From an uncultured Oscillospiraceae bacterium (GTDB lineage: Bacteria; Bacillota; Clostridia; Oscillospirales; Ruminococcaceae), in assembly GCA_964512935.1 (NCBI GenBank), contig CAZEKU010000003.1, forward strand, positions 1 through 28,040: a stretch of DNA of 28,040 bases, in the 5' to 3' direction. Both the position numbers and the translations under genes were made by a program. Numbering within the stretch: position 1 is the stretch's first letter; each line of letters opens with the position of its first letter. This document shows positions 2 through 25,176 of the stretch, piece by piece. The notes under the pieces were generated by a model. That model was given only the letters and a program-made list of their open reading frames with translations. It did no database searches and had not been told where the DNA came from.

Positions 2-1762
2 GACCACGGCAAATCGACCCTTGCCGACAGAATACTTGAAAACACAAAAGCGGTAACTCCCCGTGAAATGGAGGAGCAGCTTTTGGATAACATGGATCTC
101 GAGCGTGAGCGTGGAATTACCATAAAATCCCGTGCCGTAAGGCTTGATTACACAGCAGATGACGGAAAAACCTATGTTTTCAACCTCATCGACACCCCCG
201 GACATGTTGACTTCAACTATGAAGTTTCAAGAAGCCTTGCAGCCTGCGAGGGTGCGGTGCTCATAGTTGACGCATCGCAGGGTGTTGAGGCGCAAACTCT
301 TGCAAACACCTATCTTGCTGTTGACCATAACCTTGAGATAGTTCCCGTTATCAACAAAATAGATCTTCCTGCGGCAGACCCTGAAAGGGTTGCCCATGAA
401 ATCGAGGATATAATCGGAATTCCCGCTCTTGATGCGCCTAAAATATCCGCAAAAACCGGTGAGAATATCCATTCTGTTCTTGAGGCAATTGTTGAAGGAA
501 TACCCTCTCCCGAGGGCAATGACGAAGGCCCTCTTAAGGCACTTATCTTCGACTCAATTTACGACAGCTACCGTGGAGTTATAGTTTATGTCCGTGTTGT
601 AGACGGTGTTCTCCATTCCGGTGACCGCATTAAAATGATGTCCACCGGCGCAGAATTTGATGTAGTCGAAGTAGGCTATATGGGTGCTACAAGACTTGTT
701 CCCTGTGAAAAGCTCACCGCAGGCGAGGTAGGATATATAACCGCCTCCATTAAAACCGTTGCGGATACCGCTGTTGGTGATACCGTAACCCTTGCGGAAA
801 ATCCCGCAAGCGAGGCTCTTCCCGGATATAAAAAGGTAAACCCCATGGTTTACGCAGGTATTTATCCCCTTGACGGTGCAAAATACGGTGACCTTCGAGA
901 TGCACTTGAAAAGCTCACCCTTAATGATGCCTCCCTTAGCTTCGAACCCGAAACATCAGCCGCTCTCGGATTCGGTTTCCGCTGCGGATTCCTCGGACTT
1001 CTTCATATGGAAGTAATCCTTGAAAGACTTGAGCGTGAATACAATCTTGATCTTATAACCACCGCACCGAGCGTTGTATATAAGCTCCACCTTAATGACG
1101 GACGCACCCTTGAACTTGATAACCCCACAAACTATCCCGACCCTGCAACAATAGATTCCACCGAGGAGCCCTATGTTCGTGCCTCAATTTTCACTCCCAC
1201 TCAGTATATCGGAAGTATTATGGAGCTTTGTCAGGAGCGTCGTGGTATTTATAAAGACACGAAATATCTTGAGGCCGATCGCTGTGAGGTACATTATGAA
1301 CTGCCTCTCGGCGAAATAATCTACGACTTTTTCGATGCACTTAAAAGCCGTACAAGGGGCTACGCCTCCTTTGACTATGAGCCCTGCGGCTATAAGGCAA
1401 GCAAGCTTGTTAAGCTTGATATTCTCCTCAACGGAGAAATGGTTGACGCACTTTCGATGATGGTCTTTGCGGACAACGCCTATCCCCGTGCAAGAAAAAT
1501 GGTTGAAAGACTTCGTGACAATATAAACAGACAGCTTTTCGAAGTTCCCGTTCAGGCTGCAATAGGCGGAAAGATTATTGCCCGTGAAACAATTAAAGCA
1601 CTTCGCAAGGATGTTCTTGCAAAATGCTACGGCGGCGATATCACCCGTAAGAAAAAACTTCTTGAAAAGCAAAAAGAAGGTAAAAAGAAAATGCGCCGCA
1701 TAGGTTCCGTCGAGCTTCCTAAAGAGGCATTTATGGCGGTGCTCAAGCTTGACGATGACTAA
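2..1762 (+). CDS. lepA: Translation elongation factor 4 (LepA), 5'-truncated by the window edge
   Basis: The frame is open from position 2 ([11 protein letters not shown], the end of the G1 motif). It contains [21 protein letters not shown] and the C-terminal [30 protein letters not shown] signature. Confidence 0.98.
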
Positions 1763-1856
1763 TATATTAAAATAAAATTAAAAATAAAAAAGGATTTTCG
1801 CAAAATTCGGCGTATATAGTTTGTATAAGACTTTTTTTACCGAGGAGGTTTTGTAA

Positions 1857-2855
1857 ATGGATATCCGTGAAATGACCGAGCAGCTTGAGCGAGAAACTCT
1901 TTCACCTATTGCAACCCTTTCTTCGGAAAGCAAGGGCAGAGCTTTTCCTCTTATTTCAGATGGAATAAGAACGGATTTTCAGCGTGACCGTGACAGGATA
2001 ATCCACTGCAAAGCTTTCAGACGCCTTATGCATAAAACTCAGGTATTTTTAAGCCCCGAGGGAGACCATTACCGCACAAGGCTTACACATACTCTTGAGG
2101 TTGCGCAAATTGCAAGAACAATGGCTGTTGCATTAAGGCTGAACGAAAATTTAACCGAGGCAATCGCTCTCGGACATGACCTCGGACATACCCCTTTCGG
2201 TCACGCAGGTGAGCGTGCATTAAACGAGGTTGCTCCTAACGGATTTCGTCATTACGAACAGAGCCTGCGTGTTGTTGATGTATTAGAGCGTGACGGCTCC
2301 GGACTTGATCTCACCTATGAGGTAAGGGACGGAATTGTTTGTCACACAAAGGGCAAGGAGGCAGATACTCCCGAGGGAAGAATTGTAAAACTTGCGGACC
2401 ATTTTGCCTATGCTCATCACGATTACGAGGACGCAGTCCGTGCAGGAGTTTTAAATGAGGCAGCAGTCCCCGCAGAGGTTAAAGAAATTCTCGGTGAGGG
2501 CGCAACTCCGAGACTTGCGAAAATGATAACATCGGTTATCGAAAATTCCGACACCGATATAAAAATGGCGCCGGAGGTTGCTGCCGCAAGCAAACTTCTT
2601 GAAGATTTTATGTTCTCGGCGGTATATACAAATCCCGTTGCAAAATCTCAGGAATCAAAGGCGGAGGCGCTTGTTAAGGCACTTTACGAGTTCTTTCTCG
2701 AAAATGCAAATGCACTTCCCGCGGAATATCAGTCCATTGCAATGCGTGACGGACTTGACCGCGCGGTTTGCGATTATATAAGCGGAATGAGCGACCGCTA
2801 TGCAATTAAACTTTATAACGATTTCTTTGTTCCTAAAGGCTGGAGCAAGGAATAA
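1857..2855 (+). CDS. dgt: Deoxyguanosinetriphosphate triphosphohydrolase (HD-domain dGTPase family)
   Basis: [47 protein letters not shown] and [11 protein letters not shown] motifs; RBS GAGGAGG; lies directly upstream of dnaG. Confidence 0.93.
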   Translation: [332 protein letters not shown]

Positions 2856-2885
2856 TAAAAATCCCTTCGGAAAGGAGGCAGAGCC

Positions 2886-4640
2886 TTGATACCTCAAAGC
2901 TTTATCGAGGAGCTTAAACTCAACAGCGATATCGAATCCGTTATTTCAAGCTATGTTCAGCTTAAAAAACGCGGCAGGATTTCAACCGGACTTTGCCCTT
3001 TCCATTCCGAAAAAACCGGTTCGTTTACGGTTTATCCCGACAGTCAGTCCTTCTATTGTTTCGGATGCGGTGCCGGCGGTGATGTAATAGGCTTTATCCG
3101 CAGAATTGAAAATCTCGAATATGTGGAGGCAATTAAATTTTTGGCACAGCGTGCCGGAATGAATGTCCCGGAGGACGCCGCAGAGGATAAAACCGCTCTT
3201 TTAAAAACAAAGATACTTGAAATGAACCGCGAGGCCGCAAGATTTTATTTTTCGGAGCTAACCTCTCAAAACGGAAAAGCCGCTCTCGATTATCTTTTGG
3301 GAAGAGGACTTTTGCCGAAAACAATAAAGCATTTCGGACTCGGATATGCTCCTAATGATTGGACAAGGCTAACCGATCTTTTACATTCAAAGGGTTATAA
3401 ATATGAGGAAATGGAAGCTGCACAGCTTTCCCGAAAAAGCAATAAAAGCGGCCGCTATTACGATGTTTTCCGTGACAGAGTTATGTTCCCGATTATAGAT
3501 CTTCGCGGAAATGTAATAGGCTTCGGCGGAAGAAAAATGAGCGGCGACGGCCCTAAATATTATAACTCACCGGATACCCCGGTTTTTAAAAAGACGAAAA
3601 ACCTTTTTGCACTTAATTTCGCAAAAAATCAAAAGCTTGAAAGACTTATTCTTTGCGAGGGATATATGGATGTAATTTCTCTGCATCAGGCAGGTTTTAC
3701 AGAGGCAGTTGCCTCCCTCGGCACATCCCTTACCTCCGATCAATGCAGACTTGCCTCCTCATATGTTGACGAGGCTGTGCTCGCTTACGATTCGGATGAG
3801 GCTGGTCAAAAGGCCACAAAGCGAGCGATATCGCTCCTTGATGAGGTGGGTCTAAGATCAAAAGTGCTTTCAATTCCCGATGCAAAGGACCCGGACGAAT
3901 ATATCAAAAAGTTCGGAGGCGCAAGGTTCAAACGCCTTATCGAACAAAGCGCAGGCTCCGTTGAGTATGAGCTTTCGAAAATAAATTCAAAATACGATAT
4001 TGAAACTCCCGAAGGAAAAATTTCCGCATTAAAAGACGCGGTAGGACTCCTTGCGGATATGAAAAATCCGCTTGAGCGTGAGGTTTGGGCAGCAAAGCTT
4101 GCCTCGGACTACGGTACCGCAAAGGATGGAATTCTTTCACAGGTACAGGCGAAAATCAAACGCAGGGCAAGGTCCGAGGGAAATCGTTCAATTTCGGTGG
4201 ATAACGCCCGAAATTCAACTTTCGGCGGCGCAGTTCCAGAAAAACTGAAAAATCCAGCCTCGGCTGCTGCCGAAGAAAGGCTTTTAGGCGCAATTATGCG
4301 AAACCCCGAAGTCCTTCGAAAAATCGGTGAATCACTTTCGCCGGAGGATTTTGTCTGCGAGCTTTATAAAAATTTCTATAAAAAGCTTTTGAGCACCCTT
4401 GATACCCATGAGGAAATATCCCTTTCCCTTTTCGGAGAGGATTTTACACTTGAGCAGCAGGGAATTATCACAAAGCTTTCGTTCTTTGCAAGAGAACATA
4501 AATATTCCGCAGAGGATGCCTTTGAGGCAAGCAGAGCTATTGTCCGTATTAAAGATAAAAAAACGGATAAGGAAATAGGCGAACTTTCCGGAGCGGAGCT
4601 TGCAGCTTATATTGATAAGCTGCGAAAATCCAAAAAATAG
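2886..4640 (+). CDS. dnaG: DNA primase
   Basis: CHC2 zinc finger (CPFH...CFGC), RVMFPI, KYYNSPDT, TOPRIM EGYMDV and YDSD; TTG start after AAGGAGG. Confidence 0.97.
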   Translation: MIPQSFIEELKLNSDIESVISSYVQLKKRGRISTGLCPFHSEKTGSFTVYPDSQSFYCFGCGAGGDVIGFIRRIENLEYVEAIKFLAQRAGMNVPEDAAEDKTALLKTKILEMNREAARFYFSELTSQNGKAALDYLLGRGLLPKTIKHFGLGYAPNDWTRLTDLLHSKGYKYEEMEAAQLSRKSNKSGRYYDVFRDRVMFPIIDLRGNVIGFGGRKMSGDGPKYYNSPDTPVFKKTKNLFALNFAKNQKLERLILCEGYMDVISLHQAGFTEAVASLGTSLTSDQCRLASSYVDEAVLAYDSDEAGQKATKRAISLLDEVGLRSKVLSIPDAKDPDEYIKKFGGARFKRLIEQSAGSVEYELSKINSKYDIETPEGKISALKDAVGLLADMKNPLEREVWAAKLASDYGTAKDGILSQVQAKIKRRARSEGNRSISVDNARNSTFGGAVPEKLKNPASAAAEERLLGAIMRNPEVLRKIGESLSPEDFVCELYKNFYKKLLSTLDTHEEISLSLFGEDFTLEQQGIITKLSFFAREHKYSAEDAFEASRAIVRIKDKKTDKEIGELSGAELAAYIDKLRKSKK

Positions 4641-8580: not shown

Positions 8581-11500
8581 TTGCTTCGTTTCATAATAGG
8601 AACTAATGAGGAGGCAAGGCGAAAATTGCTTTATGAGCATATCGCCAATGAAAAATCCTCAATACTTATAGTCCCGGAGCAGTTTTCTTTTGAAAGCGAA
8701 AAACTCATTGATGAATTTTTAGGCAGCGAAAAGGCTCAAAATGTGGAGGTGCTTGGTTTTTCGCGCCTTTGCAACAGCATTTTCAGACGCTTCGGCGGAA
8801 TTGCCGGAAATTATACCGATGACAGCGTAAAGCTGATTTTAATGGGCGCAGCCCTTTCAGCCTGTGAAAATGAGCTTTGCTATTACCGCAAAAATGTACA
8901 CGGTGCGCCTTTTATCGAAAAGCTTGTTTCCACCGATACCGAACTTAAAAATGCAGGAATAACTCCGGCACAGCTCGGTGAATTTTCAAAAGCAGAGGGT
9001 GCTCTCGGTGAAAAAGCCTCCGACCTTTCGCTCATATTCGAGCTTTATAATTCAATGCTCGAAAAAAGCTATGTTGACCCTTTGACCGACATAAAGCGTG
9101 CCTGTGAAATTCTTTCGGAGAACGATTTCTTCAAAGATAAAGCCGTATTTATAGATAACTTCACAGGTTTTACCGGAAGTGAATATAAAATGCTGCGCTG
9201 CATTATTGAACAGTCGCCTACTGTTGAGGTGAGCCTTTGCTGTGATTCAATTTATGATCAAAGCGGCGGCACGGGCCTTTTTTCAAAAACTCAGCGCACC
9301 GCAGGTCGCCTTGAAAAAATCGCAAAGGAAGCTTCCGTTTCGGTTAAATCACCTATTTATGCGGAAAATCCTGATGATAATCGCCCAAGGGCGATTATCG
9401 ACCTTGAGGAAAATTTTCTTCAAACAGCTTCAAATAAAGGCGAAAACCTCGGTGAGGTAAGACTTATTAAAGCCGGTGATCCTTATGATGAGGCATATTT
9501 TGTCGCTGTAATGGCAAGAACTCTCGCGGAGGAGCAGGGCTATCGTTGGCGTGATATGGCAATTATCGCACGAGATCTTTCGCCCTATGAGCACGCGCTC
9601 CCTGCTGCATTTAAGCGTGCGGGAATCCCTCTTTATATGGATACCTCCGCAAAGCTTTCGTCACATCCTCTTGCGTCATTTATTTCAGCTGCCCTTTCCG
9701 CAGTTCGTGAAAATTTCCCCACCGCAGAGGTTTTAAAACTCCTTAAAACGGGAATTTTCCCCATTTCACCTGAAGATGCAGGCGAATTTGAAAACTACTG
9801 CTTTGTTTGGAATATCCGTGGAAATCTTTTCTGCGAGCCTTTTACGGGAAGTCCCGACGGTTTCCGTGAACTTAAACCCTCCGATAGCGAAAAGCTTGAA
9901 AAGCTGAATTTACTTAGAGAAAAAATAATATCCCCCCTTGAAAAGCTGAAATTAAAACTCAAAAATGCAAGCGGAAAGGAATTTTCGAAGGCATTTTATG
10001 ATTTTCTATGTGAATGTGAGGTCATAAAAGGTCTGCAAAGGCTTTATGATGAGTTCTATAACTCTGGCGAAATTGAAACTGCGGAAAATCTTGATGCTTT
10101 TTGGAATGTTGTAATCTCCTCCCTTGACAAATTTTCCGTTGCACTCGGAGATGTTCGCCTTGAAAAGGATACCCTTTCAAGGCTTTTCGAGCTTGTTATA
10201 AGCACAGCCGAAATAGGCGTTTTGCCCCATACCCTCGATAGCGTTTCCGCAGGCACCGCCGACAGAATGCGTCCCTCGGATATAAAGGCTGTTTTTGTAA
10301 TAGGCCTTTGCGACGGAGTTTTCCCCGCACCTCCGAAAAATGGTTCACTTTTCACCTTGGAGGAGCGAAAGCTCCTTGCAAACGGAGGACTTGATTTAGG
10401 CGAGGGCGAAAATGACGATATTCTTTCCGAAAGAATGTATGCCTACACCTCTTTCACCTGCGCTTCGGAAAAGGTTTTCGCCTCCTATCCGAAATATGAC
10501 CTTGCCTTTGCGGAGCAAAGCCCCTCAATGCTCATAAGCAGACTTCGTGAGGCTGTGGGTGTTCTTTCTGAGGAAAGCACCTCCGATTTTCGTGAGGATT
10601 TTTGGCTTTGCAGCGAAAGCTTTGCTTTTGAACACCTTGCCTCCTTCGGAAAAAACTCCACCGAAAGCTCCGAGGCACTTAAAAAATATTTCTCCGAAAA
10701 GGAAATTTGGACGGAGCGTGCTCAAAAGCTCGGTTCTGCGGTTGCCGCAGAAAACTTCGTGCTCAATGATCCGGAAAATGCGGAAAGGCTCTATGGAAAA
10801 GATTTCCGCTTTTCTCCTACAAAGCTTGATACCTTCGGTCAATGTCCCTTTTCTTATTTTATCAAATCCGGATTATCCCTTAAAGAACGCCAAAAAGCGG
10901 AGCTTTCGCCCCTTTCCGCAGGAACGCTTATCCACTATGTGCTCCAGGTGCTCATACCTAAGTTCGGTGGCAAGGGTCTTGCGGTTTTAAGCGAAAGCGA
11001 ACTTCGCTCCGAGGTGGATTCGGTGCTCAAAGAGTATCTTGATACGGTTATGGGCAGTGCTAAGGGAAAATCCTCTCGTTTTATGTACCTTTACAGGCGC
11101 ACCGCAGGCTTTATTGTAAGACTTCTCCGCAGACTCGGTGATGAATTTTTACATTCCGAATTTGTTCCCTACGCCTTTGAAGAACCTCTCGGCGGCGATA
11201 AAATAAGCTATTATCAGCTTGAAACTCCCGACGGCAAGAAAATTACCGTTGAGGGCACTATCGACAGAGTTGACGTGCTCGAAAGAAACGGTGAACGCTA
11301 TGTTAGGGTTGTGGATTACAAAACAGGCTCCAAGGATTTTGCACTTTGCGATGTCTATTACGGCATAAATATGCAGATGCTTGTGTATCTTTTCTCGATT
11401 GAAAGCGGTGGAAAGGGCGATCTTTCAAATTCAATCCCCTCCGGAGTTCTTTATATGCCCGCAAAAAATTCCGTGCTCAAAATGGAGCGCAGCGACAGTC

Positions 11501-11895
11501 CCGAAAAGGTTATTTCGGACAGCCGCAAGAGTTTTTGCATGAAAGGGCTTGTTCTCGATGATGAATCCGTGCTCAACGCAATGGAACCCGGTCTCGGCGG
11601 ATTTTACATCCCAGTAAAACAGAGCAAAAGTGGCCCTTCGGGCAGCGTTGCAAGCCTTGCGGAATTCGGTGCAATTAAGCGTCATATAGATTCCCTGCTC
11701 ATTGAAATGGCAACGGAGCTTTCCTCCGGAAAAATTGCCGCAATGCCCTATCGAAAAAACAGCAGTACACCCTGCGATTTTTGCAGATATAAGGCAATTT
11801 GCCGACGCAGTGAAAACGCTCCCTTTGTTGAGCACGAATCCTTTAAAAACGATGTGTTTTTTGAAAAAGTGAAAGGCGGTGAAAAGAATGGCTAA
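8581..11895 (+). CDS. addB: ATP-dependent helicase/nuclease subunit B (AddB)
   Basis: VPEQFSFESE, RWRDMAIIARD, Fe-S cysteines (QCPFSYF ... PCDFCRYKAIC), nuclease motif GTIDRVD...VVDYKTG; TTG start at 8581 after GGCGGTGG. Confidence 0.94.
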   Translation: MLRFIIGTNEEARRKLLYEHIANEKSSILIVPEQFSFESEKLIDEFLGSEKAQNVEVLGFSRLCNSIFRRFGGIAGNYTDDSVKLILMGAALSACENELCYYRKNVHGAPFIEKLVSTDTELKNAGITPAQLGEFSKAEGALGEKASDLSLIFELYNSMLEKSYVDPLTDIKRACEILSENDFFKDKAVFIDNFTGFTGSEYKMLRCIIEQSPTVEVSLCCDSIYDQSGGTGLFSKTQRTAGRLEKIAKEASVSVKSPIYAENPDDNRPRAIIDLEENFLQTASNKGENLGEVRLIKAGDPYDEAYFVAVMARTLAEEQGYRWRDMAIIARDLSPYEHALPAAFKRAGIPLYMDTSAKLSSHPLASFISAALSAVRENFPTAEVLKLLKTGIFPISPEDAGEFENYCFVWNIRGNLFCEPFTGSPDGFRELKPSDSEKLEKLNLLREKIISPLEKLKLKLKNASGKEFSKAFYDFLCECEVIKGLQRLYDEFYNSGEIETAENLDAFWNVVISSLDKFSVALGDVRLEKDTLSRLFELVISTAEIGVLPHTLDSVSAGTADRMRPSDIKAVFVIGLCDGVFPAPPKNGSLFTLEERKLLANGGLDLGEGENDDILSERMYAYTSFTCASEKVFASYPKYDLAFAEQSPSMLISRLREAVGVLSEESTSDFREDFWLCSESFAFEHLASFGKNSTESSEALKKYFSEKEIWTERAQKLGSAVAAENFVLNDPENAERLYGKDFRFSPTKLDTFGQCPFSYFIKSGLSLKERQKAELSPLSAGTLIHYVLQVLIPKFGGKGLAVLSESELRSEVDSVLKEYLDTVMGSAKGKSSRFMYLYRRTAGFIVRLLRRLGDEFLHSEFVPYAFEEPLGGDKISYYQLETPDGKKITVEGTIDRVDVLERNGERYVRVVDYKTGSKDFALCDVYYGINMQMLVYLFSIESGGKGDLSNSIPSGVLYMPAKNSVLKMERSDSPEKVISDSRKSFCMKGLVLDDESVLNAMEPGLGGFYIPVKQSKSGPSGSVASLAEFGAIKRHIDSLLIEMATELSSGKIAAMPYRKNSSTPCDFCRYKAICRRSENAPFVEHESFKNDVFFEKVKGGEKNG

Positions 11896-14800
11896 GCGAA
11901 TTTGGAACAGCGATCAGCTTGATGCAATAACCTCTTTCGGTGGAAACCTTCTTGTTTCAGCTGCCGCAGGCAGCGGTAAAACCGCTGTTTTGGTAGAAAG
12001 AGTTGTGCGTATGCTCACAGATGAGCACGCACCTATTGATGCCGACCGCCTTCTTATAGTTACTTTCACAAGGCTTGCGGCGGCGGAAATGCGCAGCCGC
12101 ATAAATGCGGCCCTTTCGGAGCTTATTGCAAAAAATCCCGATGATGCAAGGCTTTCACGACAGCTCCTTTTGATGGAGCGTGCTCATATCGGAACAATAC
12201 ATTCCTTCTGCTCCGAAATTGTTCGTGAAAACACAAGCCTTCTCGGAATCATGCCCGACCCATCCATTGCAGACGAGGACGAAAGTGCGGATATTTCATT
12301 TTCCGCCCTTGAGGATACCATCGAAAAGTTCTATTCAGAGGGCGACAGCGACTTTTTGGAGCTTGCGGAAACTCTCGGTGCGGGAAGGGATGACTCCGGA
12401 CTTTCGGATTCCGTGCTCACGCTCTACGGTTTCATAAGCGCACTTCCCCATTATGAGGATTGGCTCGACGAAAAGGCTGCCCTTTATGATCCCGATATAC
12501 CCGTAACAAGTTCCGTTTGGGCAACAATTCTTTTCGAATATGCAGACTCCGTGCTCAAATATCACCTCTCTCGTGCAAAATATATGGCAGAGGAATGTGA
12601 TAAGGAATTTTGCGATGAATATGCGGATATGTTCCGTGACGATGTCTTTGTTTTGGAAAGACTTTCGGATGTTTGCGGTCAACATGATTGGGAAAGACTC
12701 CGCACAATGTTCGCCTCTCCTGGTTTTATGAAAAAACCCGCCGTAAAAGATGTTGACCCGGTGCTCAAAGATAAGGTTGCCGCCGTAAGGGATGCTTACT
12801 GCGGCTCAAAGGGCATTATAAAATCGGTTCTTGCGGAGGAATTTTCCGTTTCTCTTGAAGAATTTTCCGATGATATCTCCGCAAACCTTTGCAATTTCAA
12901 ATGCCTTTCAAGGGTAACGCTTGAATACGCAAGGCGTTTTTCTGAACTTAAAAGAGAAAAACGCCTGATTGACTACACCGACCTTGAACAGATGACCCTT
13001 TCGGTGCTCACTGAAAAAGATGAGCACGGAAACTATGTTTCTACCCCTCTTGCAAAGGAAATATCCTCCCGTTTCGACTATATTTTGATCGACGAATGTC
13101 AGGATATAAACAAGGTTCAGGACACGATTTTTTCATCAATTTCAAACGGAAACAACCTTTTCTTCGTAGGCGATGTAAAGCAGAGCATCTATCGTTTCAG
13201 ACAGGCTATGCCCGAACTTTTCCTTGAAAAAAGAAGGGATTGGCCTATTCTTAAAGAAACCAGCAGCTATCCCGCCACAATAATTCTCGGAAAAAACTAC
13301 CGCAGCCGAAAGAATATTGCGGATGCCGTAAACTATATTTTCGGTCAGATTATGTCAAAAAAAGCTGCCGAAATTGAATATGACCGCTCCGAAATGTTAA
13401 TTCCGCAGGCAGAATTTCCCGAAAATTATGAAATTCGCAACGAATTTATGCTTGTTGAGGCAGATTCCGAAAACGCTAAAGCCGAGGCTCGTGCGGTGGC
13501 ACAGCGCATTTATAATATGGTACAAGGTGGCGAAACCGTTTCGGAAAACGGAATTCTCCGCCCAATTCGATATTCCGATATCTGTATACTTTTCCGCTCT
13601 CCTAAAGGAAAAGCAGAAATTTTCCTTTCGGAGCTTCGTAAAAAAGGCATAAACTGTCGCAGTGAAAACGATAAAGGTTTCCTTTCAAGACCCGAAATCG
13701 CCGCAGTTTTAGATGTTTTAAAAGCAGTTGACAATCCGCTTTTGGATATTCCTCTTGCAGGTGCAATGCTTTCCGAGATGTTCCTTTTCACTCCGGATGA
13801 GCTTGCCTCAATTCGCTGTGAAAGCAAAAAGTTACCGCTTTATTCCTCCGTAAAGCTTGCTGCGGAAAAGGGTAATAAAAAAGCCGCAGGCTTTTTGAGC
13901 ACCCTTGATGAACTTCGCAGAACTGCCTCCTATGAGCGCAGCGATTTTGTAATAGAAAAGCTCTATGATATGACCTCTTTTCCCCAGGTTATGCGCAGCT
14001 GTGATGAGGGTGAGCTGAAACTTGCAAACCTAAGGCTGCTCATAAAATACGCCTCCGACAGGGAAAATTCCGGTGCTCATGGACTTTCCGCATTTATCCG
14101 ATTTATAAATCGTCTTGAGGAGCGTGAAAGTGACCTCAAACCCGCAAGCTCCACCGGAAACGGTGGAAATTCGGTCAGAATCATGTCCGTTCACGGTTCA
14201 AAGGGACTTGAATTTCCGGTAGTTTTCCTTTGCGGAACGGGAAAGCTTTTCCGCACTGAAAGAAGCGATTCTCCGCTTTTACATCCCGATTTCGGATTTG
14301 CCTGTCCTGCCAAGGACAGCCTTACGGGTGCAAGATATGTAACCGCCCCTCAGCTTGCCCTAAAGCATGAGCTTAGACGCTACGGCCTTGCAGAGGAAAT
14401 GCGTATTCTTTATGTTGCACTTACAAGACCTAAGGAGAGGCTTATTATAACCTGCTGTAAAAAGGACTGTGGAAAATACCTTACCTCATTAGCACCGAGC
14501 GCACGCTCCGAAAAAAGGATCGATCCCTTTGCAATTTCCTCCGCAAAATGTGAGGCGGATTGGATTTTGCTTGCGCTTTTGCATCATCCTAATGCAGAAA
14601 ATTTTCGTGTTATTGCAGGGCTTGAGGATGATTTTATAATTCCCGACGAAAGCCCCTGGCTTTTCAGCATTGCTGATGAAACCGAGGAGGACGATATTTC
14701 CTCCGAGGAGGAAAATGTTAAAGCAGAGCCCGATGAGGAGCTTTATCGCACACTTATGATGCGTGAAAAATGGAAATATCCCTTTGCGGCATCCGAAAAA

Positions 14801-15400: not shown

Positions 15401-15432
15401 AAAAAACAGCACCCCTTCGGGTGCTGTTTTTT
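15401..15432. terminator. Bidirectional intrinsic terminator between addA and the SnoaL-like gene
   Basis: AAAAAA-CAGCACCC-CTTC-GGGTGCTG-TTTTTT between convergent stops. Confidence 0.9.
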
Positions 15433-16060
15433 ATTCCTCTGAAAATATCCATTCGCTTGCTTCATCGTAAAGCGCATTTACTGTTTTAAGATCGTCTTCG
15501 CCGGGAAGCTCCGATGTTACATCAAGACCCTTTCTTCCCAAATGGTCTGTAAGGCATTTATAGCTTTCCCTTTTTTCTTTATTGCTTACAGCGGTTTCGG
15601 GAATGGATTTTCCCTCAACGGGATCCATCCAATCACGCTCATAAATGCAATCGAAGCCCTTTATTTTCCAAACTCCGTTTTCCTTTTGAACTTTATAAAG
15701 AAGTCTTGAATAGCCTTTTACATCAAATTCAACACCATCAACTTTTTCCCTCGGGCCAACCAATGTGCACTGCATTTCCGCTATGGCTTTATTCTTCCAA
15801 AGCCATATCATGGTGCTGTGTATTTTATGTTTTGCACCAAGTCCCTGACCACTTGAGCGACGGACAAATTCTCTGCCGTCACCGTCATACCAGGTTATTC
15901 TAACTCTGCTTTCTTCGGAATAGGTCTGCTCCATTTTATCAAAATGAAGATTATCTCGATAATAGCGCTCGGACTCAATAAGGTTTTTTATATTGTGTTT
16001 ATCGAGCATTGCCTGCATATCGTCTTCATAGGTTACAATATCAAAAAAAGATTTTTTCAT
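15431..16060 (-). CDS. SnoaL-like / NTF2-fold protein (SnoaL_4-type, putative dehydratase or lyase)
   Basis: ATG at 16060 follows GAGGG. The pattern IKNLIESERYYRD...W...KHKIH...RLLYKVQKENGVWKIKGFDCIYERD is typical of NTF2/SnoaL folds. Confidence 0.78.
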   Translation of the reverse strand: MKKSFFDIVTYEDDMQAMLDKHNIKNLIESERYYRDNLHFDKMEQTYSEESRVRITWYDGDGREFVRRSSGQGLGAKHKIHSTMIWLWKNKAIAEMQCTLVGPREKVDGVEFDVKGYSRLLYKVQKENGVWKIKGFDCIYERDWMDPVEGKSIPETAVSNKEKRESYKCLTDHLGRKGLDVTSELPGEDDLKTVNALYDEASEWIFSEE

Positions 16061-16073
16061 ATATCCCTCTATC

Positions 16074-16106
16074 AAAAGAAGGCACTTTTAAAGTGCCTTC
16101 TTTTTT
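16074..16106. terminator. Terminator-like hairpin between the esterase and SnoaL-like genes
   Basis: AAAA-GAAGGCACT-TTTAA-AGTGCCTTC-TTTTTT; on the minus strand only 4 U follow the stem. Confidence 0.75.
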
Positions 16107-16122
16107 CTGCTGATATTAAATA

Positions 16123-17172
16123 TTATTTCAAATGTTTCTCGATGAAATCAAATGCAATCTGGAAACGTTCGGGAGTCATGAACCAAGGATCGTCGCAGTG
16201 ATGCTTGCCTTCACCAACGATGAAGTCGGTATTTTCTTCACCGATTACGCTTACAAGTTTTTCATGGAATGCTTCTGCAATCTCGAAAGGTACGATCGGG
16301 TCATCGGTTCCATGGAAAAGAAGAATAGGAGAAGTTTCTTTATTTACATGATGTTTGGGGTCTGCAAGTCTGAGGAGATCGTGAGCTTTAGGAAGAGGTA
16401 AACCGAAGAGCCAAGACTCAACAGAGTTAGGATCGTTATGCGGGAAGAGTACCGGAACACCGGTGCGCTCTGCAAGTTTATCAAGATATGCGTCAAATTC
16501 ACCCATATTGCCGCAAGGGCCGCTTCCTACGATAGCTACCTGAACACGGCTGGACTGATCCATGTTGCCGAGGGTATCATCATTGAACATTTCCTCATCA
16601 CCGGTAACTGCAAGCATTGCGGAAAGATATGCACCTGCAGAATATCCCCAAGAGATAATTCTGTTAGGATCGATATTAAGTTCTGCTGCATGAGCACGCA
16701 TATAACGAACTGCTGCTTTTACATCGTAAACACATGCCGGCCAATGTGCTTCGCCGGAAAGACGATAGTCCATTGATACCATTGCATAACCTTTTTCGAG
16801 AAGCTGGAACATAGGAGGAAGAGTAAAGTCTTTAGCACTACCGCCGCAGAAACCGCCTGCATGGAGGTTAATGATTACGGGGAAAGGGCCTTCACCGGTT
16901 TCGGGATAGTAAATATCGAATTTCTGATTTTCGGATTTGTCTGCATAATGAATATCGAATTTTTTGTTGGAAACTTTGTCCATAAGCTCCTGCGGACAAA
17001 GTCCCTTAGGATAAACATTTGAGAACTTTTCCTCATACTTGTCGTAAAGATCCTTCGGTGCAGCATTGATATCGTTGAACAATGCTGCATATTCTTCTTG
17101 GTTGGAAGAATATGGGTCGTCCTCAAAGTTAAAGCCTTTTTCCATATAATTGGTGTTTTCATTCTCAGCCAT
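16123..17172 (-). CDS. Alpha/beta hydrolase (HSL/BD-FAE-like esterase)
   Basis: ATG at 17172 follows GAAAGGAG. Oxyanion-hole-like HAGGF, DYRLS, nucleophile GYSAG, HGTDDPIVP and a C-terminal His (GKHH). Confidence 0.9.
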   Translation of the reverse strand: MAENENTNYMEKGFNFEDDPYSSNQEEYAALFNDINAAPKDLYDKYEEKFSNVYPKGLCPQELMDKVSNKKFDIHYADKSENQKFDIYYPETGEGPFPVIINLHAGGFCGGSAKDFTLPPMFQLLEKGYAMVSMDYRLSGEAHWPACVYDVKAAVRYMRAHAAELNIDPNRIISWGYSAGAYLSAMLAVTGDEEMFNDDTLGNMDQSSRVQVAIVGSGPCGNMGEFDAYLDKLAERTGVPVLFPHNDPNSVESWLFGLPLPKAHDLLRLADPKHHVNKETSPILLFHGTDDPIVPFEIAEAFHEKLVSVIGEENTDFIVGEGKHHCDDPWFMTPERFQIAFDFIEKHLK

Positions 17173-17214
17173 GACAAAGTCTCCTTTCAAAATTAAAGAC
17201 ATTTTTTGTTTTCT

Positions 17215-17228
17215 GCTACCTTGGTAGG
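17215..17228. promoter_or_regulatory. Palindromic operator copy 1
   Basis: GCTACC-TT-GGTAGG, 11 nt downstream of the -10 of the esterase promoter. Confidence 0.75.
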
Positions 17229-17239
17229 CTTTCACCAAG

Positions 17240-17268
17240 AGAATAGCAGATATTCTCTTTTCTGTCAA
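17240..17268 (-). promoter_or_regulatory. Sigma-A promoter P1 of the esterase-SnoaL unit
   Basis: Minus strand TTGACA-17-TATTCT with extended TG-C. Confidence 0.75.
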
Positions 17269-17336
17269 TAGAATTTCTCATTTTTTTGTACAAAAACAAC
17301 TAATTTACAACGAAATCAGTCCCGTTATTGACAAAA

Positions 17337-17345
17337 TGATAAAAT
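17337..17345 (+). promoter_or_regulatory. Possible extended -10 promoter P2 pointing into the intergenic region
   Basis: TG-A-TAAAAT, 13 nt upstream of operator 2; no good -35. Confidence 0.35.
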
Positions 17346-17358
17346 TCATCCCTGCATA

Positions 17359-17372
17359 GCTACCCGGGTAGT
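17359..17372. promoter_or_regulatory. Palindromic operator copy 2
   Basis: GCTACC-CG-GGTAGT. Confidence 0.75.
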
Positions 17373-17551
17373 TGTGCAATAACAGCCTGGAAACAATTAT
17401 TATGTGATTCGGAAATTCTTCGTATTTATAATTGCCAAAGTCAAGGGCTTTTTTATCCCATTTTTTCGACTTTTGAAAAACGAATTTTTCCTCTTGTTAC
17501 ATAATATAATTCTTATTTCCGTTATATATTTGTTTCAAATCTACCACGATA

Positions 17552-17565
17552 GCTACCGCGGTATC
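17552..17565. promoter_or_regulatory. Palindromic operator copy 3
   Basis: GCTACC-GC-GGTATC, overlapped by a degenerate copy CTACC-AC-GATAG at 17541-17552. Confidence 0.75.
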
Positions 17566-17576
17566 TTCGCAAGCTC

Positions 17577-17605
17577 AATATACCACATTAGTTAGTTAAT
17601 GTAAA
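17577..17605 (-). promoter_or_regulatory. Sigma-A promoter P3 (minus strand)
   Basis: TTTACA-17-TATATT with extended TG-G; operator 3 lies 11 nt downstream, the same geometry as P1. Confidence 0.6.
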
Positions 17606-17657
17606 TAGTTTTTTTCGCATTTTTAAAACATTTTTTGCGAAAAACTTGAAATGCAGG

Positions 17658-17686
17658 TTGACTTTTGTAGATAATCGACTTATAAT
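17658..17686 (+). promoter_or_regulatory. Sigma-A promoter P4 of the membrane protein-DASS unit
   Basis: TTGACT-17-TATAAT. Confidence 0.8.
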
Positions 17687-17693
17687 ACAATTG

Positions 17694-17707
17694 GCTACCG
17701 TGGTAAT
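17694..17707. promoter_or_regulatory. Palindromic operator copy 4
   Basis: GCTACC-GT-GGTAAT at the predicted +1 of P4. Confidence 0.75.
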
Positions 17708-17793
17708 TAAAACAAACTTAATTTCAAATGTTCTTTCAGAAAAATAACTGTCTTTATTCCGCCTTGTTAAATGTATTATGGGGGTTATTTTTT

Positions 17794-18288
17794 ATGATGA
17801 GCAAAAAAAGAGTTCTTTATTACTTTACTGGCCTCGTTCTATTTTGGTTTGGTTTTCCCGATTTTTGTCGGTATGTTCCTTATGGGCGGTATTGATTGGC
17901 CCCATGTCCCGATCAACTGTCTTTTGGGAACCGTAGTCGGAACTGTTCTTTGCGCCATTGTTCCTTTGGGCAGAATTTCCGCTATGCTTGCAATGAAAAT
18001 TACTAAAAACCCGGAACCTTCCTTTTCGCCTGTGTTCGATACATCTTCCAGGTTGTAATGCTGCTTTTGGTATTGATGCCCGTATTTATCACCTTTGATG
18101 CCTGCGTATTGGGTGATGCACTCGTTATGGCTGTTCCTCCGAACTGCTATGCAATGTATCCTCAGGTATATGTGATTGCATACATTGCAGCATTGATAGG
18201 CGACAAACCTATTGAATACCTTGCAGAAGTATTTGCAGGAGAACGAAAGAAAAAAATAAATAAAAGCGCAATATTTACTGCGCTTTGA
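17794..18288 (+). pseudogene. Frameshifted membrane protein gene (about 4 TM helices), split by two homopolymer indels
   Basis: MMSKK (frame 1) joins EFFITLLASFYFGLVFPIF...KITK (frame 2) across an A7 run at 17803-17809. That joins KPGTFLFACVRYIFQVVMLLLV...(frame 1) across an A5 run at 18005-18009. Together they give one continuous hydrophobic ORF of about 164 aa. Confidence 0.72.
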
Positions 18289-18316
18289 ACTTTTAAAACA
18301 GAAAGGAGAATTGCGC

Positions 18317-19726
18317 ATGGAAAAAACGCGCAGATTTTTATCATTTGATTTGAAGCAATGGCTTATCACATTGGCAGCCGTTGCACTTGTGGTGGTTGGC
18401 CGCTTTGTTTCGCCAATCAGTGCTTTGAGCCCTGAGGGCAATACAGCATTGTTCTTTATGCTCGCACTTGTTCTTTTTCTTCTTACAAACACTATCCCCG
18501 TAGGTCTTATTGCAGTTTGTGCTATAACATTCCTCCCTGTATTGGGTCTTACCGAAAGCCTTGATGTTGCAGCGGGAATGTTCGGCAATACTATGTTCTG
18601 GTTCAGCCTTGCATGTTTTGCAATTGCCTCTGTTATGACAACCCTTCCGCTTTCAAAGCGTATTTCCCTTGTCATACTTAAAATAGCTCCGAAGAACATA
18701 ACCGGTGTTGTTTCCGCACTTTTTGTTGCAACTGCACTTCTTTCCGCATTTATGTCCAACTTCTCCGCATCCATAATCCTTATTGTTATTGCAAAGCAAT
18801 TCCTTGAGATTTATGACACCGAAGAAGATAAACAAAAATCCAAAGGCTCCCTTTTCATTTCAATTGTTATGGGCGCAGCCATCGGCGGAATTATAACTCC
18901 TATGGGCTCCGGCTGTATGGTTATCGCAAAACAGTTCCTTGAGGGCGCCGGCTATTCCGTAAGCTTTGTTCAGTGGATCGCTTTCGTTCTTCACGTTGCA
19001 ATAGTTATGTTCATTGAAACACTTTTCGTTCTCACTCATTTCCTCAAACCCGTTCCTCTTTCCAAAGAGAAAATCAACAGCTATATAGTTTCTCTCGAAG
19101 CTTCTCTTCCTAAAAAATGGAGCACTCAGGAGATTCTTGCAGCAATTATCCTTGTTATAACCCTTGTTTGCTGGTTCCTTAACTTCAATATGATTCTTGT
19201 TGCACTTCTTTGCACCGTTCTTCTTCTCTTCCCCGGATTTGGAATACTCAACTGGAAAGATTTCGAAAAAGACACCGGCTGGGGTACTGTAATGCTTATC
19301 CCCGCTCTCATGGTAGTTGTAACTATACTCAATCAGCAGGGCGTACTTACCTGGCTTGTTGATGCTATCGTAAGCATTATTCCTCAGAACGCATCCGCTG
19401 CACTTATCATTTCCATCTTCGGAGTTTTCATTGCTGCAATTCTTATAGTAATGCCCTCCGGTCCCGTTCTTACAACTGTTATGGTTCCGATTATGATTTC
19501 CCTTGGTGCACAGGTTGGAGCGCATCCCGTTGCACTTGCTCTTTCCGTTGCATTCTTCACCACCTTTGGATTTATTATTCCTACCGAAACAGTTGCACTT
19601 ATGGTCTCCGACGGCGGCAAAAACTTCTCGAGCAAGGATCTTCCGAAAATCGGACTTCCTGTTTCGATTGTTGCAATTATCGCTTGCGCAATTTGGCTTC
19701 CTATCTGCACCGGAATTCTTTTCTGA
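18317..19726 (+). CDS. SLC13/DASS-family (IT superfamily) transporter
   Basis: ATG follows GAAAGGAG. Many TM helices; LSAFMSN, GGIITPMGSG, HPVALAL...FGFIIP and SSKDLPKIGL match the DASS layout. Confidence 0.85.
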   Translation: MEKTRRFLSFDLKQWLITLAAVALVVVGRFVSPISALSPEGNTALFFMLALVLFLLTNTIPVGLIAVCAITFLPVLGLTESLDVAAGMFGNTMFWFSLACFAIASVMTTLPLSKRISLVILKIAPKNITGVVSALFVATALLSAFMSNFSASIILIVIAKQFLEIYDTEEDKQKSKGSLFISIVMGAAIGGIITPMGSGCMVIAKQFLEGAGYSVSFVQWIAFVLHVAIVMFIETLFVLTHFLKPVPLSKEKINSYIVSLEASLPKKWSTQEILAAIILVITLVCWFLNFNMILVALLCTVLLLFPGFGILNWKDFEKDTGWGTVMLIPALMVVVTILNQQGVLTWLVDAIVSIIPQNASAALIISIFGVFIAAILIVMPSGPVLTTVMVPIMISLGAQVGAHPVALALSVAFFTTFGFIIPTETVALMVSDGGKNFSSKDLPKIGLPVSIVAIIACAIWLPICTGILF

Positions 19727-19737
19727 TATTTCCGAGG

Positions 19738-19766
19738 TTGAAATAAAATTCATTTTGGTCTATAAT
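19738..19766 (+). promoter_or_regulatory. Sigma-A promoter upstream of the TetR gene
   Basis: TTGAAA-17-TATAAT. Confidence 0.65.
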
Positions 19767-19768
19767 AA

Positions 19769-19812
19769 AAAGGCGGGGAGTTTTTTCTCCTCGCCTTTAA
19801 TTTTTCTTTTAA
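19769..19812 (+). terminator. Intrinsic terminator after the DASS gene
   Basis: 12-bp stem AAAGGCGGGGAG/CTCCTCGCCTTT (one G-U pair) followed by AATTTTTCTTTT. Confidence 0.7.
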
Positions 19813-19824
19813 GAGGTACCTAAG

Positions 19825-20541
19825 TTGAGCCAAGCTAAAATCACACAAAAGCGTGATATCTCCACAAGAGAGCGTGTCATCGACGAAGCTGCAAAGCTTT
19901 TTTATTTAAATGGATATAGAGAGACCACCATGCGTTCGCTTGCATCCGCTGTTGGAATCCGCCACCCATCTCTGTTTTCTCTTTTTGAAAACAAAAGCGC
20001 CATAGCCGCCCATTTATTGCGCAGATATTTTCGCGGAATACAGTTTTACACCCAAAAAATTCAGGATGAAATTAACGAAAGACATAGCCGCACGGAAAAT
20101 CTTTTGATTTTCTATGCCCTCAACTGTCTTATGAATTCAAAGGACGACCGTTTTACCTATTTCTATTCATCTTTCTATGCGGAAGATCCCGACAGAGTTG
20201 ATGAAATAGCTGTTTCACTTCATCTTCTTTATGAAGATTCTGAGAAAGATTCGAATATGGTCGAAAGATCCATTGATGATATGATCCGCAAGCTTGATTA
20301 TCAGCTTTTCTCCCATATTGTAGAAATGCTTATCAATCAGCAGCTTGAACATTCAATCACTGCTAAAGAGGCTGCAATTTATTTTGCCGCAAAGAAAATC
20401 GACTGCTGTGACCCTCTTTGGAACCTTACTCTCGAAAATGTAATCGAATTTTATGATAAACATTGGGATAAAATAGAAAATCTCCACATAGATGTCTATA
20501 AAGACCTTTTGAATCAGCCCCGTTTCGATAATGAACTTTAA
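19825..20541 (+). CDS. TetR/AcrR-family transcriptional regulator
   Basis: N-terminal HTH: RERVIDEAAKLFYLNGYRETTMRSLASAVGIRHPSLFSLFENKSAI; TTG start after AAGAGG. Confidence 0.9.
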   Translation: MSQAKITQKRDISTRERVIDEAAKLFYLNGYRETTMRSLASAVGIRHPSLFSLFENKSAIAAHLLRRYFRGIQFYTQKIQDEINERHSRTENLLIFYALNCLMNSKDDRFTYFYSSFYAEDPDRVDEIAVSLHLLYEDSEKDSNMVERSIDDMIRKLDYQLFSHIVEMLINQQLEHSITAKEAAIYFAAKKIDCCDPLWNLTLENVIEFYDKHWDKIENLHIDVYKDLLNQPRFDNEL

Positions 20542-20581: not shown

Positions 20582-20583
20582 AT

Positions 20584-20639: not shown

Positions 20640-21770
20640 ATGGACAAGAGAGCCTTTCGCAATATTTCAATCAAAAAATTAAGAACAAACCTCGTGCAGG
20701 GCATTATATTTTTCATCCGCACCGTTTTCGGAGTTTTCCTATGCTTTATAGGAATATATATGATTTTTTCAGCAACAAAAAACGGCTCGGATATGCTCTA
20801 TTATGCCCTTGCATTCGCATCCCCCGGTACGGCAATTGAATTTCTGCGTGAACCTTCTTTTGAAAACAGGGAGGAAATTTCAGTTTCCTCTCCGGAAAAA
20901 ATCGAAAGTACAGATGATTTTCTTCCTTTTGAAATAATTTTCCCGGAAATTCCCGAAATTTCCTATGATATTCCCGAAGAAAACCTCGGAAAAGTCAGTG
21001 AAATTCAGTATTCTCCATCGGAGGGCGGAGTTTATATTGCTTACGAAAACGCTATGATTAAAAACTGCACTAAGCATAGCTCCGATAAAATCAAAAAAAT
21101 GCTTGAAACAAAACATAATCTCTCTTTGAGCACCGAAAATTCCGCCGTGCTCATCTATCATACGCACGCTACCGAGGGCTATGAAAATTCCGACACAGGT
21201 TTTTTTGACACAAGCAAAACTTGGCGCAGCACCGACCCCGATAAAAATATGATCGCCGTAGGCGATGTAATAACAGCGGTGCTTTCGGAAAAGGGAATTT
21301 TTACAATTCATGACGGAACAATGCACGATGACCCAAGCTATAAGGGTTCATATCAGCGCAGCGCAGTTACAATTTCAAATCATCTTGAGGAAAACCCAGA
21401 TATCAAAGTCTGCCTTGATATTCACCGTGATGCAATTGAGCCATCCTCCTCGGAAATTATGAAACCCACCGCATTGATAAACGGAAAAAAGGCTGCGCAG
21501 ATAATGATAATCGCAGGCTGTGATGATGGAAGTATGAATATGCCCGATTATTGGGAAAATCTGCGCTTTGCGGCTGCAATTGCAAGCAAGCTTGAGGAAC
21601 TTTATCCCGGAATTTGCCGCCCGATTCTTTTCGATTACCGAAAATACAATATGGACCTTTCGCCGGGGCTTTTGCTTATTGAAATAGGCGCAACGGGAAA
21701 CACTCTTGAGGAGGCAAAATATTCCGCAGAGCTTTTGGGAAATGCGCTTGCAGAGCTTTTCGGTGAATAA
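20640..21770 (+). CDS. spoIIP: Stage II sporulation protein P (engulfment amidase/endopeptidase)
   Basis: N-terminal TM helix; VLIYHTHATEGY, LDIHRD and LLIEIGATGNTLEEAKYS catalytic motifs. Confidence 0.92.
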   Translation: MDKRAFRNISIKKLRTNLVQGIIFFIRTVFGVFLCFIGIYMIFSATKNGSDMLYYALAFASPGTAIEFLREPSFENREEISVSSPEKIESTDDFLPFEIIFPEIPEISYDIPEENLGKVSEIQYSPSEGGVYIAYENAMIKNCTKHSSDKIKKMLETKHNLSLSTENSAVLIYHTHATEGYENSDTGFFDTSKTWRSTDPDKNMIAVGDVITAVLSEKGIFTIHDGTMHDDPSYKGSYQRSAVTISNHLEENPDIKVCLDIHRDAIEPSSSEIMKPTALINGKKAAQIMIIAGCDDGSMNMPDYWENLRFAAAIASKLEELYPGICRPILFDYRKYNMDLSPGLLLIEIGATGNTLEEAKYSAELLGNALAELFGE

Positions 21771-23868: not shown

Positions 23869-23883
23869 AGCTTTCACCTCTTG

Positions 23884-23928: not shown

Positions 23929-23940
23929 TATATTTGTCAA
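23912..23940 (-). promoter_or_regulatory. Sigma-A promoter of the blaI-M56/M23 operon
   Basis: TTGACA-17-TAGAAT on the minus strand; the -10 lies inside the distal operator arm. Confidence 0.8.
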
Positions 23941-23944
23941 GCAC

Positions 23945-24651: not shown

Positions 24652-24681
24652 AAAAATCACCGCCAAATTAAAGCTTTTCGG

Positions 24682-24710
24682 GAATATTTTTTCCGTTTTT
24701 TCTAATAATA
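24682..24710 (+). promoter_or_regulatory. Putative sigma-G promoter of spoVAC-AD-AE
   Basis: GAATA-17-AATAATA; spoVA is a known sigma-G operon. Confidence 0.55.
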
Positions 24711-24713
24711 AAC
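24685..24713 (-). promoter_or_regulatory. Putative sigma-F/G promoter of the TauE pair
   Basis: GTTTA-14-GGAAAAAATA, compared with the sigma-F consensus GYWTA-15-GGnnAnAnTA (spacer 1 nt short). Confidence 0.4.
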
Positions 24714-24738
24714 CCAAAAAACAAAAGGAGTCTTAAAA

Positions 24739-25176
24739 ATGTCCTATTCTCCGAATGAATATAAAAAACTCAGCGAAAAGGCTGTTCCAAAAACAAAATC
24801 CCTGCGAAATTTAAGCGGAGCATTTTTAATCGGCGGCACAATTTGCGTTTTAGGTCAGCTCGTGCTCAACTTTTATTTGAGCACGGGTTTGAGCACGCCC
24901 GATGCCTCCGCCCTGTGCTCAATTACCCTTGTGGGATTTTCCGCAATTTTAACAGGCCTTGGAATTTATGATAATATTGCAAAATTCGGCGGAGGCGGAA
25001 CTCTTGTTCCCATAACAGGTTTCGCAAACGCTGTGGTAGCGCCTGCTATGGATTTTAAAAGCGAGGGCTTCGTGCTCGGACTTGGTGTAAAGATTTTTAC
25101 AATAGCTGGGCCGGTTATTGTATACGGCGTTTTTGCATCGTTTTTATATGGTTTGATTTATTATTTTATAAGATAG
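24739..25176 (+). CDS. spoVAC: Stage V sporulation protein AC
   Basis: AFLIGGTICVLGQ...GIYDNIAKFGGGGTLVPITGFANAVVAPAMDFKSEGFVLGLG-KIFTIAGPVIVYG. Confidence 0.95.
   Translation: MSYSPNEYKKLSEKAVPKTKSLRNLSGAFLIGGTICVLGQLVLNFYLSTGLSTPDASALCSITLVGFSAILTGLGIYDNIAKFGGGGTLVPITGFANAVVAPAMDFKSEGFVLGLGVKIFTIAGPVIVYGVFASFLYGLIYYFIR

Follow-up and report, generated by a model that had tools for sequence, protein, structure and literature searches.

GTGCTCA is a hyper-abundant DNA word of one Oscillospiraceae genus whose copies are set in helical register within genes

The stretch of DNA analysed here (the window) comprises 28,040 nt, contig CAZEKU010000003.1 (C3) of the 1.39-Mb draft genome of an uncultured Oscillospiraceae bacterium (GCA_964512935.1, hereafter G000), which consists of 208 contigs with a GC content of 40% and is 67% complete. 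It carries the genes addB and addA, an accessory module at 15431-20541 and, at 24739-26214, the spoVAC-spoVAD sporulation operon beside two split TauE genes and a BlaI/Penicillinase_R repressor gene. It also contains 27 copies of the 7-mer GTGCTCA (TGAGCAC when read on the opposite strand), and the subject of this work is this word, its abundance across the genome and the genus, and the helical register in which its copies are set. The copies in the window are listed below; species counts refer to a codon alignment of 24 addA genes of the clade.

257..263, plus strand, sense copy in frame 0 (Val-Leu), gene 2-1762
1739..1745, plus strand, sense copy in frame 0, gene 2-1762
4390..4396, minus strand, copy antisense to gene 2886-4640
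9588..9594, minus strand, antisense copy in addB
10718..10724, plus strand, sense copy in frame 1, addB; next copy 41 bp away
10759..10765, plus strand, sense copy in frame 0, addB
10948..10954, plus strand, sense copy in frame 0, addB; next copy 75 bp away
11023..11029, plus strand, sense copy in frame 0, addB
11473..11479, plus strand, sense copy in frame 0, addB; next copy 96 bp away
11569..11575, plus strand, sense copy in frame 0, addB
11829..11835, minus strand, antisense copy at the 3′ end of addB
12022..12028, minus strand, antisense copy in addA; alignment site 143, common to one other species
12180..12186, plus strand, copy in addA, CGT GCT CAT (Arg-Ala-His); kept in 21 of 24 species
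12413..12419, plus strand, copy in addA (Val-Leu); kept in 16 of 24 species
12551..12557, plus strand, copy in addA (Val-Leu); kept in 13 of 24 species
12761..12767, plus strand, copy in addA; in six species, with Val where others have Met
13004..13010, plus strand, copy in addA; kept in 10 of 24 species
13021..13027, minus strand, antisense copy in addA (Glu-His); in seven species, other residues elsewhere
13896..13902, minus strand, antisense copy in addA; this species only
14073..14079, plus strand, sense copy in frame 1, addA; this species only
16691..16697, minus strand, the only copy in the accessory module
21127..21133, minus strand, copy antisense to gene 20640-21770; divergent pair with 21147
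21147..21153, plus strand, sense copy in frame 0, gene 20640-21770
24862..24868, plus strand, copy 1 of a four-copy cluster in spoVAC
24878..24884, minus strand, copy 2 of the spoVAC cluster (Leu-Ser-Thr)
24890..24896, minus strand, copy 3 of the spoVAC cluster (Leu-Ser-Thr)
24915..24921, plus strand, copy 4 of the spoVAC cluster (Cys-Ser)

Dinucleotide shuffles of the window averaged 1.84 copies and never exceeded 5, against the 27 observed. All coordinates and strands given for these copies in a preliminary description of the window proved exact, as did the flanks reported there: C/G at position -1 in 26 of the 27 copies, C/G at -2 in 23 and A/T at +1 in 25. It was also correct that addAB holds 17 copies (12 plus-strand, 5 minus-strand) and that the accessory module holds a single one. 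The idea that addAB is a special site for the word did not stand, since its 2.4-2.6 copies per kb are surpassed by many genes, with up to 6.9 per kb, and are ordinary for a motif-rich gene.

A genome-wide k-mer count, as the preliminary description had proposed, revealed 955 copies of GTGCTCA in G000 where an order-3 Markov model expects 163. This corresponds to about 0.7 copies per kb, divided evenly between the plus (476) and minus (479) strands. CGTGCTCA was found 459 times against 26.6 expected, and CGTGCTCAAA is the commonest 10-mer of the genome. A logo of 946 copies carries information only at positions -2 (C), -1 (C/G), +1 (A/T) and +2 (A), indicating that GTGCTCA is a short word and not a piece of a longer repeat. 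A dispersed repeat of the repetitive extragenic palindromic (REP) or miniature inverted-repeat transposable element (MITE) type was considered and rejected, because there is no longer conserved unit, copies lie in frame in conserved proteins and the lower stems of the hairpins vary.

The share of copies within genes is 83%, comprising 529 in sense and 270 in antisense orientation. Codon-preserving shuffles gave 60 ± 6 and 54 ± 7, respectively, and shuffling of codon order gave 38 and 34, so an artefact of codon or dipeptide usage can be ruled out; the excess neither vanished against a codon-preserving shuffle nor was confined to addAB. Positions at which a synonymous change alone could create GTGCTCA (protein-compatible positions) number 1,885 on the sense and 882 on the antisense side, and 28% and 31% of them are filled. 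The roughly 2:1 excess on the coding strand is therefore due entirely to site availability, as antisense copies cannot use the frame in which TGA would be read as a stop codon, and the equal use of both gene strands argues for recognition of duplex DNA rather than of RNA or codons. The pressure on the word is symmetric and acts at the DNA level. Taken together, the shuffles and the equal strand use support the earlier proposal of a lineage-specific signal at the DNA level that protein coding does not explain.

Relatives of its AddA place the organism in an uncultured Oscillospiraceae ("Ruminococcaceae") lineage represented only by metagenome-assembled genomes (MAGs) from ruminant and human gut. 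The 9-mer CGTGCTCAA is present in 106-449 copies per species in 18 out of 18 species of the genus, with 0-8 copies of the reversed control. No comparable enrichment of the 9-mer was found in 60 other genera of the family (at most 63 copies each) or in 150 genomes from 30 families of the order (at most 93 copies), and about 210 genomes from some 155 other genera of the order showed no such enrichment. The possibility of a variant word, or "dialect", in G073, the genome with the top count in the family outside the genus, was dismissed, as its GC content of 61% explains the count (54 versus 33 expected). GTGCTCA is again the top-ranking 7- to 9-mer in G018 and G010, making it the top word in three species together with G000.

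The same boundary is seen at addA itself. Loci with at least 51% protein identity carry 0.5-2.3 copies per kb at GC contents from 44 to 62%, whereas loci with at most 36% identity carry about 0-0.2 per kb. In the codon alignment, the site at 12180 is occupied in 21 species and others in 16, 13, 10, 7 and 6. At the shared sites the synonymous positions within the word are held (e.g., CGT GCT CAT), while the adjoining Leu, Gly and Thr codons vary. Some copies arise from an amino acid change, with Val (GTG CTC AAA) in place of the Met (ATG CTC AAA) found elsewhere, and one antisense copy sits in a Glu-His pair where other species carry different residues. As the word constrains both codon choice and residues of core proteins across the genus, a strong function or drive at the DNA level must exist.

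The copies in G000 are clustered, with 32% of the gaps between neighbours shorter than 60 bp (4-7% expected) and a variance-to-mean ratio of about 2. At distances of up to 130 bp there are 412 pairs where about 80 are expected, and the dominant period of these distances is 10.5 bp, not 3 bp, with a strength of R = 0.53-0.56 (nominal Rayleigh p of about 1e-51). The coherence extends further, with R = 0.43 out to about 250 bp and a signal that can still be picked up around 400 bp; over 849 pairs, a period of 10.52 bp fits best. The period holds for same-strand, convergent and divergent pairs, with phase offsets of +0.25, -1.2 and +1.3 bp, respectively, which place the effective centre of the site about 0.6 bp 5′ of the centre of the 7-mer, i.e., at the centre of SGTGCTCA. 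The same period in every orientation means that all copies lie on one face of the helix. In addAB, seven consecutive distances between same-strand neighbours (41, 75, 96, 233, 138, 210 and 243 bp) all deviate by no more than 2 bp from multiples of 10.5. In a control set of 158 similarly abundant 7-mers, R exceeded 0.45 only for overlapping shifts of GTGCTCA, and the median was 0.14. The phasing was replicated in the partial genomes G018 (R = 0.53) and G010 (R = 0.50) and, more weakly, in G009 (58% GC, R = 0.38).

Near an existing copy, protein-compatible positions are filled in 73% of cases when they are in phase (203 of 278) and in 24% when they are out of phase (18 of 74; Fisher p = 4e-14). 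Compatible positions left unfilled, of which 75 are in phase, 56 are out of phase and 36 fall in between, show no comparable periodicity. This phase-dependent filling means that protein structure does not explain the phasing. An origin in the periodicity of amphipathic helices is ruled out by this test and by the pairs at distances not divisible by 3, which are still phased (R = 0.48). Tandem repeats and hairpins were likewise rejected as the source, as 512 pairs with R = 0.53 remained after removal of pairs with repeat-like flanks and of close inverted pairs. Periodicity of A-tracts alone was also set aside, since control words containing A or T runs reach an R of only about 0.28-0.3. One 21-bp tandem repeat at C2:1505-1607 of G000 bears the word or a near-cognate in each unit; it lies in a gene for a His/Cys-rich protein with HEHEHHC... 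repeats.

The register is shared by near-cognates of the word. Near exact copies, in-phase occurrences outnumber out-of-phase ones by 209 to 21 for ATGCTCA, by 77 to 11 for GTGCTCG and by 45 to 7 for CTGCTCA; among the one-mismatch variants, those with a change in the inner TGCTC are rare and unphased. This tolerance profile resembles the specificity of a binding site. The phasing of variants at positions 1 and 7 defines RTGCTCR as the functional word, of which G000 has 1,998 copies (1.44 per kb) with R = 0.46. A-tracts are phased around GTGCTCA at about 11 bp, and A-tracts as a whole have a period of about 10.5 bp in G000.

The word is distributed unevenly among genes, 71% of which have no copy. 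Genes with at least four permissible positions are bimodal, as 76 fill none of them (46 expected from a binomial) and 73 fill at least 60%. This patchiness can be seen in the window, where spoVAC fills four of its four permissible positions and the neighbouring spoVAD none of four. In a contrast of 20 genes, the ten richest in the word were mostly core housekeeping genes (encoding SpoIIE, FeoB, threonine synthase, pseudouridine synthase, RecG, MnmG, CCA-adding enzyme and AddA among others), and, among genes without a copy, the ten that offer the most permissible positions encoded mainly immunoglobulin-like surface proteins, MatE and ABC exporters, and uncharacterized proteins.

Between genes, the density of the word follows the type of spacer. 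Convergent (3′-3′) spacers have 3.42 copies per kb and tandem spacers 0.85 per kb, mostly beside the upstream stop codon, while divergent (5′-5′) promoter spacers have 0.04 per kb, a single copy in 26 kb. This exclusion from promoter spacers fits a binder that would block the initiation of transcription. Close convergent pairs of the form GTGCTCA-N0-8-TGAGCAC number 33, 29 of them intergenic, and all except two have a loop of N2-5. The intergenic ones lie mostly 6-30 bp past a stop codon between A- and T-runs, and many divergent pairs with longer loops likewise sit after stop codons. Two terminator examples are predicted to fold at -26.2 and -23.1 kcal/mol ahead of a U-run. Inverted pairs of this terminator type are a trait of the DNA uptake sequences (DUS) of Neisseriaceae and the uptake signal sequences (USS) of Pasteurellaceae, and are present here.

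The data require a pressure on duplex DNA that is specific for RTGCTCR, indifferent to orientation and sensitive to rotational setting over tens of helical turns; this pressure is tolerated in transcribed DNA, is not seen in promoter spacers and is confined to one genus. The simplest agent with these properties would be a sequence-specific protein whose molecules attach cooperatively to a single face of the DNA, and our preferred reading, to which we give a probability of roughly 0.45, is that the copies form site arrays for such a putative protein. The word (C)(C/G)GTGCTCA(A/T), with the core RTGCTCR, is a double-strand DNA signal of this one Oscillospiraceae genus, written into genes and terminator stems by base substitution. 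An abundant sequence-specific protein may dock on the words in either orientation, with cooperative contacts along one side of a helix that is almost straight or evenly curved, and the outcome would be a lattice that organizes the nucleoid or marks the DNA rather than one that regulates genes. Terminator stems and permissive codons would then be the places where the sequence can freely accommodate the word. Helically phased site arrays are known from the DnaA boxes at oriC, plasmid iterons, SeqA-bound GATC tracts and PhoP boxes. As in those arrays, short sites are set here at whole helical turns, which by analogy would imply cooperative binding to one face; unlike them, with their few loci, the present sites number about 1,000-2,000 genome-wide, in coding DNA and in either orientation.

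Several points weigh against this reading. No binding protein was identified. Genes preceded by arrays of the word were screened for a binder that regulates itself, and no convincing candidate emerged; a lone near-cognate site was seen at one XRE-type gene. Terminator pairs, the housekeeping genes among the motif-richest and conservation throughout the genus are equally expected of a tag for DNA uptake or transfer, and the phased A-tracts allow a purely structural reading that needs no dedicated protein. Synonymous conservation pooled across addA (0.78 versus 0.68, p = 0.06, 8 columns) is suggestive but not decisive. Furthermore, all genomes compared are MAGs, the gene calls come from a simple ORF (open reading frame) finder and are crude, and pairs inside one cluster are not independent of each other, so that the p values are overstated; the species within the genus are likewise not independent.

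A self-recognition tag for DNA uptake or transfer, comparable to DUS and USS, would be imported or packaged preferentially and spread by recombination. GTGCTCA shares with those sequences that it is short, non-palindromic, lineage-specific, present on both strands at about one copy per kb, introduced into genes by substitution and paired in inverted orientation at terminators. The ten genes richest in it are mostly core housekeeping genes, such as those for SpoIIE, RecG, MnmG and AddA, with surface proteins and exporters prevailing among the ten motif-free genes tested. The density of about 0.7 per kb on both strands, the top rank in three species, the enrichment that spans the genus and is limited to it, and the 33 close convergent pairs (29 intergenic) with their stable terminator hairpins of -23 to -26 kcal/mol all speak for such a tag. 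We searched for protein families in five genomes of the genus (G000, G010, G005, G007 and G009), of which G010, G005 and G007 are 96-98% complete. ComEC, a ComEA-like protein and DprA were found in all five; as these families were also found in 10-11 of 14 well-known control genomes, they are weak evidence for competence. The T2SSE ATPase (PF00437) and the T2SSF platform protein (PF00482) were not found in G000, G010, G005 or G007, and of the five genomes G009 alone has them, the one in which enrichment is weakest. This type IV pilus-like locus of G009 appears twice with identical scores (C1:204787-208262 and C15:41612-45087), which could reflect a duplicated or redundant contig or contamination. 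DUS and USS are reported to be evenly spaced and without orientation bias (PMC1939737), whereas the copies of GTGCTCA are clustered and phased at 10.5 bp and are not enriched in promoter spacers. At 7-10 bp, the core is also shorter, and the host is a spore-forming Gram-positive organism; most of the genomes lack pilus or pseudopilus genes. The enrichment, at 6-40-fold, is lower than what we take to be typical of DUS and USS. The uptake signal suggested in the preliminary description is thus matched by the genus-wide occurrence on both strands, the terminator pairs and the housekeeping genes, and is weakened by the absence of pilus genes from three of four near-complete genomes and by the clustered, phased spacing; we regard an uptake or transfer tag as rather unlikely, and the same applies to a variant in which a transfer receptor gains avidity from phased copies. 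Less likely still is an intrinsic structural element, in which curvature or anisotropic bendability for nucleoid packing would be encoded by the flexible TG and CA steps of the word and by A-tracts in register with it, with no dedicated sequence-specific protein. The phasing of A-tracts near the word (about 11 bp) and their global periodicity would suit it, as would the same-face phasing irrespective of orientation, which a groove-directed bend at the centre of the site would give. However, the inner TGCTC is strictly required although many other sequences would bend equally well, and one exact word limited to one genus is more typical of a reader protein.

Hyper-abundance and maintenance at the DNA level are also features of HIP1 (GCGATCGC) of cyanobacteria, for which a mutational ratchet tied to methylation and short-patch repair has been proposed (PMC5861425, PMC4390886). 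GTGCTCA resembles HIP1 in being conserved at orthologous sites, in having no known function and in not being tied to promoters. HIP1 is palindromic and has cognate orphan methyltransferases, whereas GTGCTCA is asymmetric. No C5 methyltransferase, Vsr or Dam-type enzyme (PF00145, PF03852 and PF02086) was found in the five genomes, and N6_N4 and N6 methyltransferases (PF01555 and PF02384) are sporadic among them. With no DNA methyltransferase family common to all five, the link to methylation raised in the preliminary description is not upheld. A ratchet would not predict helical phasing either; the periodicity reported for HIP1 is on a scale of tens of kb (PMC5861425), unlike the single helical turn seen here, and we consider this explanation very unlikely. 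That the word is the Chi site of the AddAB enzyme of the lineage, also suggested previously, is highly improbable. Like Chi (AGCGG in Bacillus subtilis, GCTGGTGG in Escherichia coli) and the polar words KOPS (FtsK-orienting polar sequences) and SRS (SpoIIIE recognition sequences), GTGCTCA is an over-represented short word in core genes, and AddAB is encoded here. A strand-skew analysis revealed no polarity beyond coding constraints: the orientation relative to GC skew is 353:288, and the skew of 0.63 (0.56 for the 8-mer) on 67 contigs with concordant skew and gene bias is fully explained by site availability. In G009, three contig stretches of 100-200 kb gave a weak replication-orientation ratio of 74:59. 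Phasing and terminator pairs have no place in Chi biology, and GAGCGGG (skew 0.79) and GAAGCGG (0.74), which contain the Bacillus AGCGG core, fit better. There remains a bias in codon pairs, dipeptides or amphipathic helices, or remnants of mobile repeats. Val-Leu GTG CTC makes up 388 of the 529 sense copies, and the 21-bp tandem repeat of G000 adds a few pairs. Such a bias is scarcely credible given a count 9-fold above synonymous shuffles, antisense positions filled as often as sense ones, copies in intergenic hairpins, the use of positions according to phase, the lack of information beyond -2 to +2 and the survival of the phasing once repeat-like pairs are removed.

Words of such abundance, such as DUS/USS, HIP1 and Chi, are to our knowledge rare, and each has opened a field; we know of none in gut Clostridia, nor of any that stands in helical register inside genes. 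Our literature search found neither GTGCTCA nor TGAGCAC in such a role, and nothing linking uptake sequences, Firmicutes and over-representation. It is quite possible that the copies mark a chromatin-like system not described in bacteria, in which a sequence-specific protein lattice would read a 7-8-bp word that selection has placed at about 30% of the permissible coding and terminator positions, in strict helical register over hundreds of bp and away from promoters. The phasing yields a testable prediction, namely a cooperative DNA binder that acts on one face, for which the natural arrays are ready probes. The word is in addition a clean genus-specific marker that could aid the binning of MAGs and the detection of foreign DNA.

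Some minor observations were made along the way. In the window, long ORFs overlap on both strands at 17839-19753 of the accessory module (a plus-strand ORF of 471 aa against minus-strand ORFs of 311 and 297 aa), and the ORFs alone leave the true coding strand ambiguous. GAGCGGG occurs 145 times in G000 against 53.5 expected and is, like GAAGCGG, a better candidate for the Chi site of AddAB. GGGACTT and GGACTT are about 3-4-fold over-represented in G000 with a skew of 0.80-0.88, and could be a polar word of the KOPS or SRS kind or a codon effect. TTTCCGAAA is among the commonest 9-mers of G000 (325 copies), and TTGCCGCA is among its most over-represented 8-mers (299 versus 87 expected). Other highly repeated words are present in the sister species, CTCCCCTGTGT in G018 (L084-L103) and GTCGTAGGGGCG in G010 (L104-L123), and these may be CRISPR (clustered regularly interspaced short palindromic repeats) repeats or REP-like elements.

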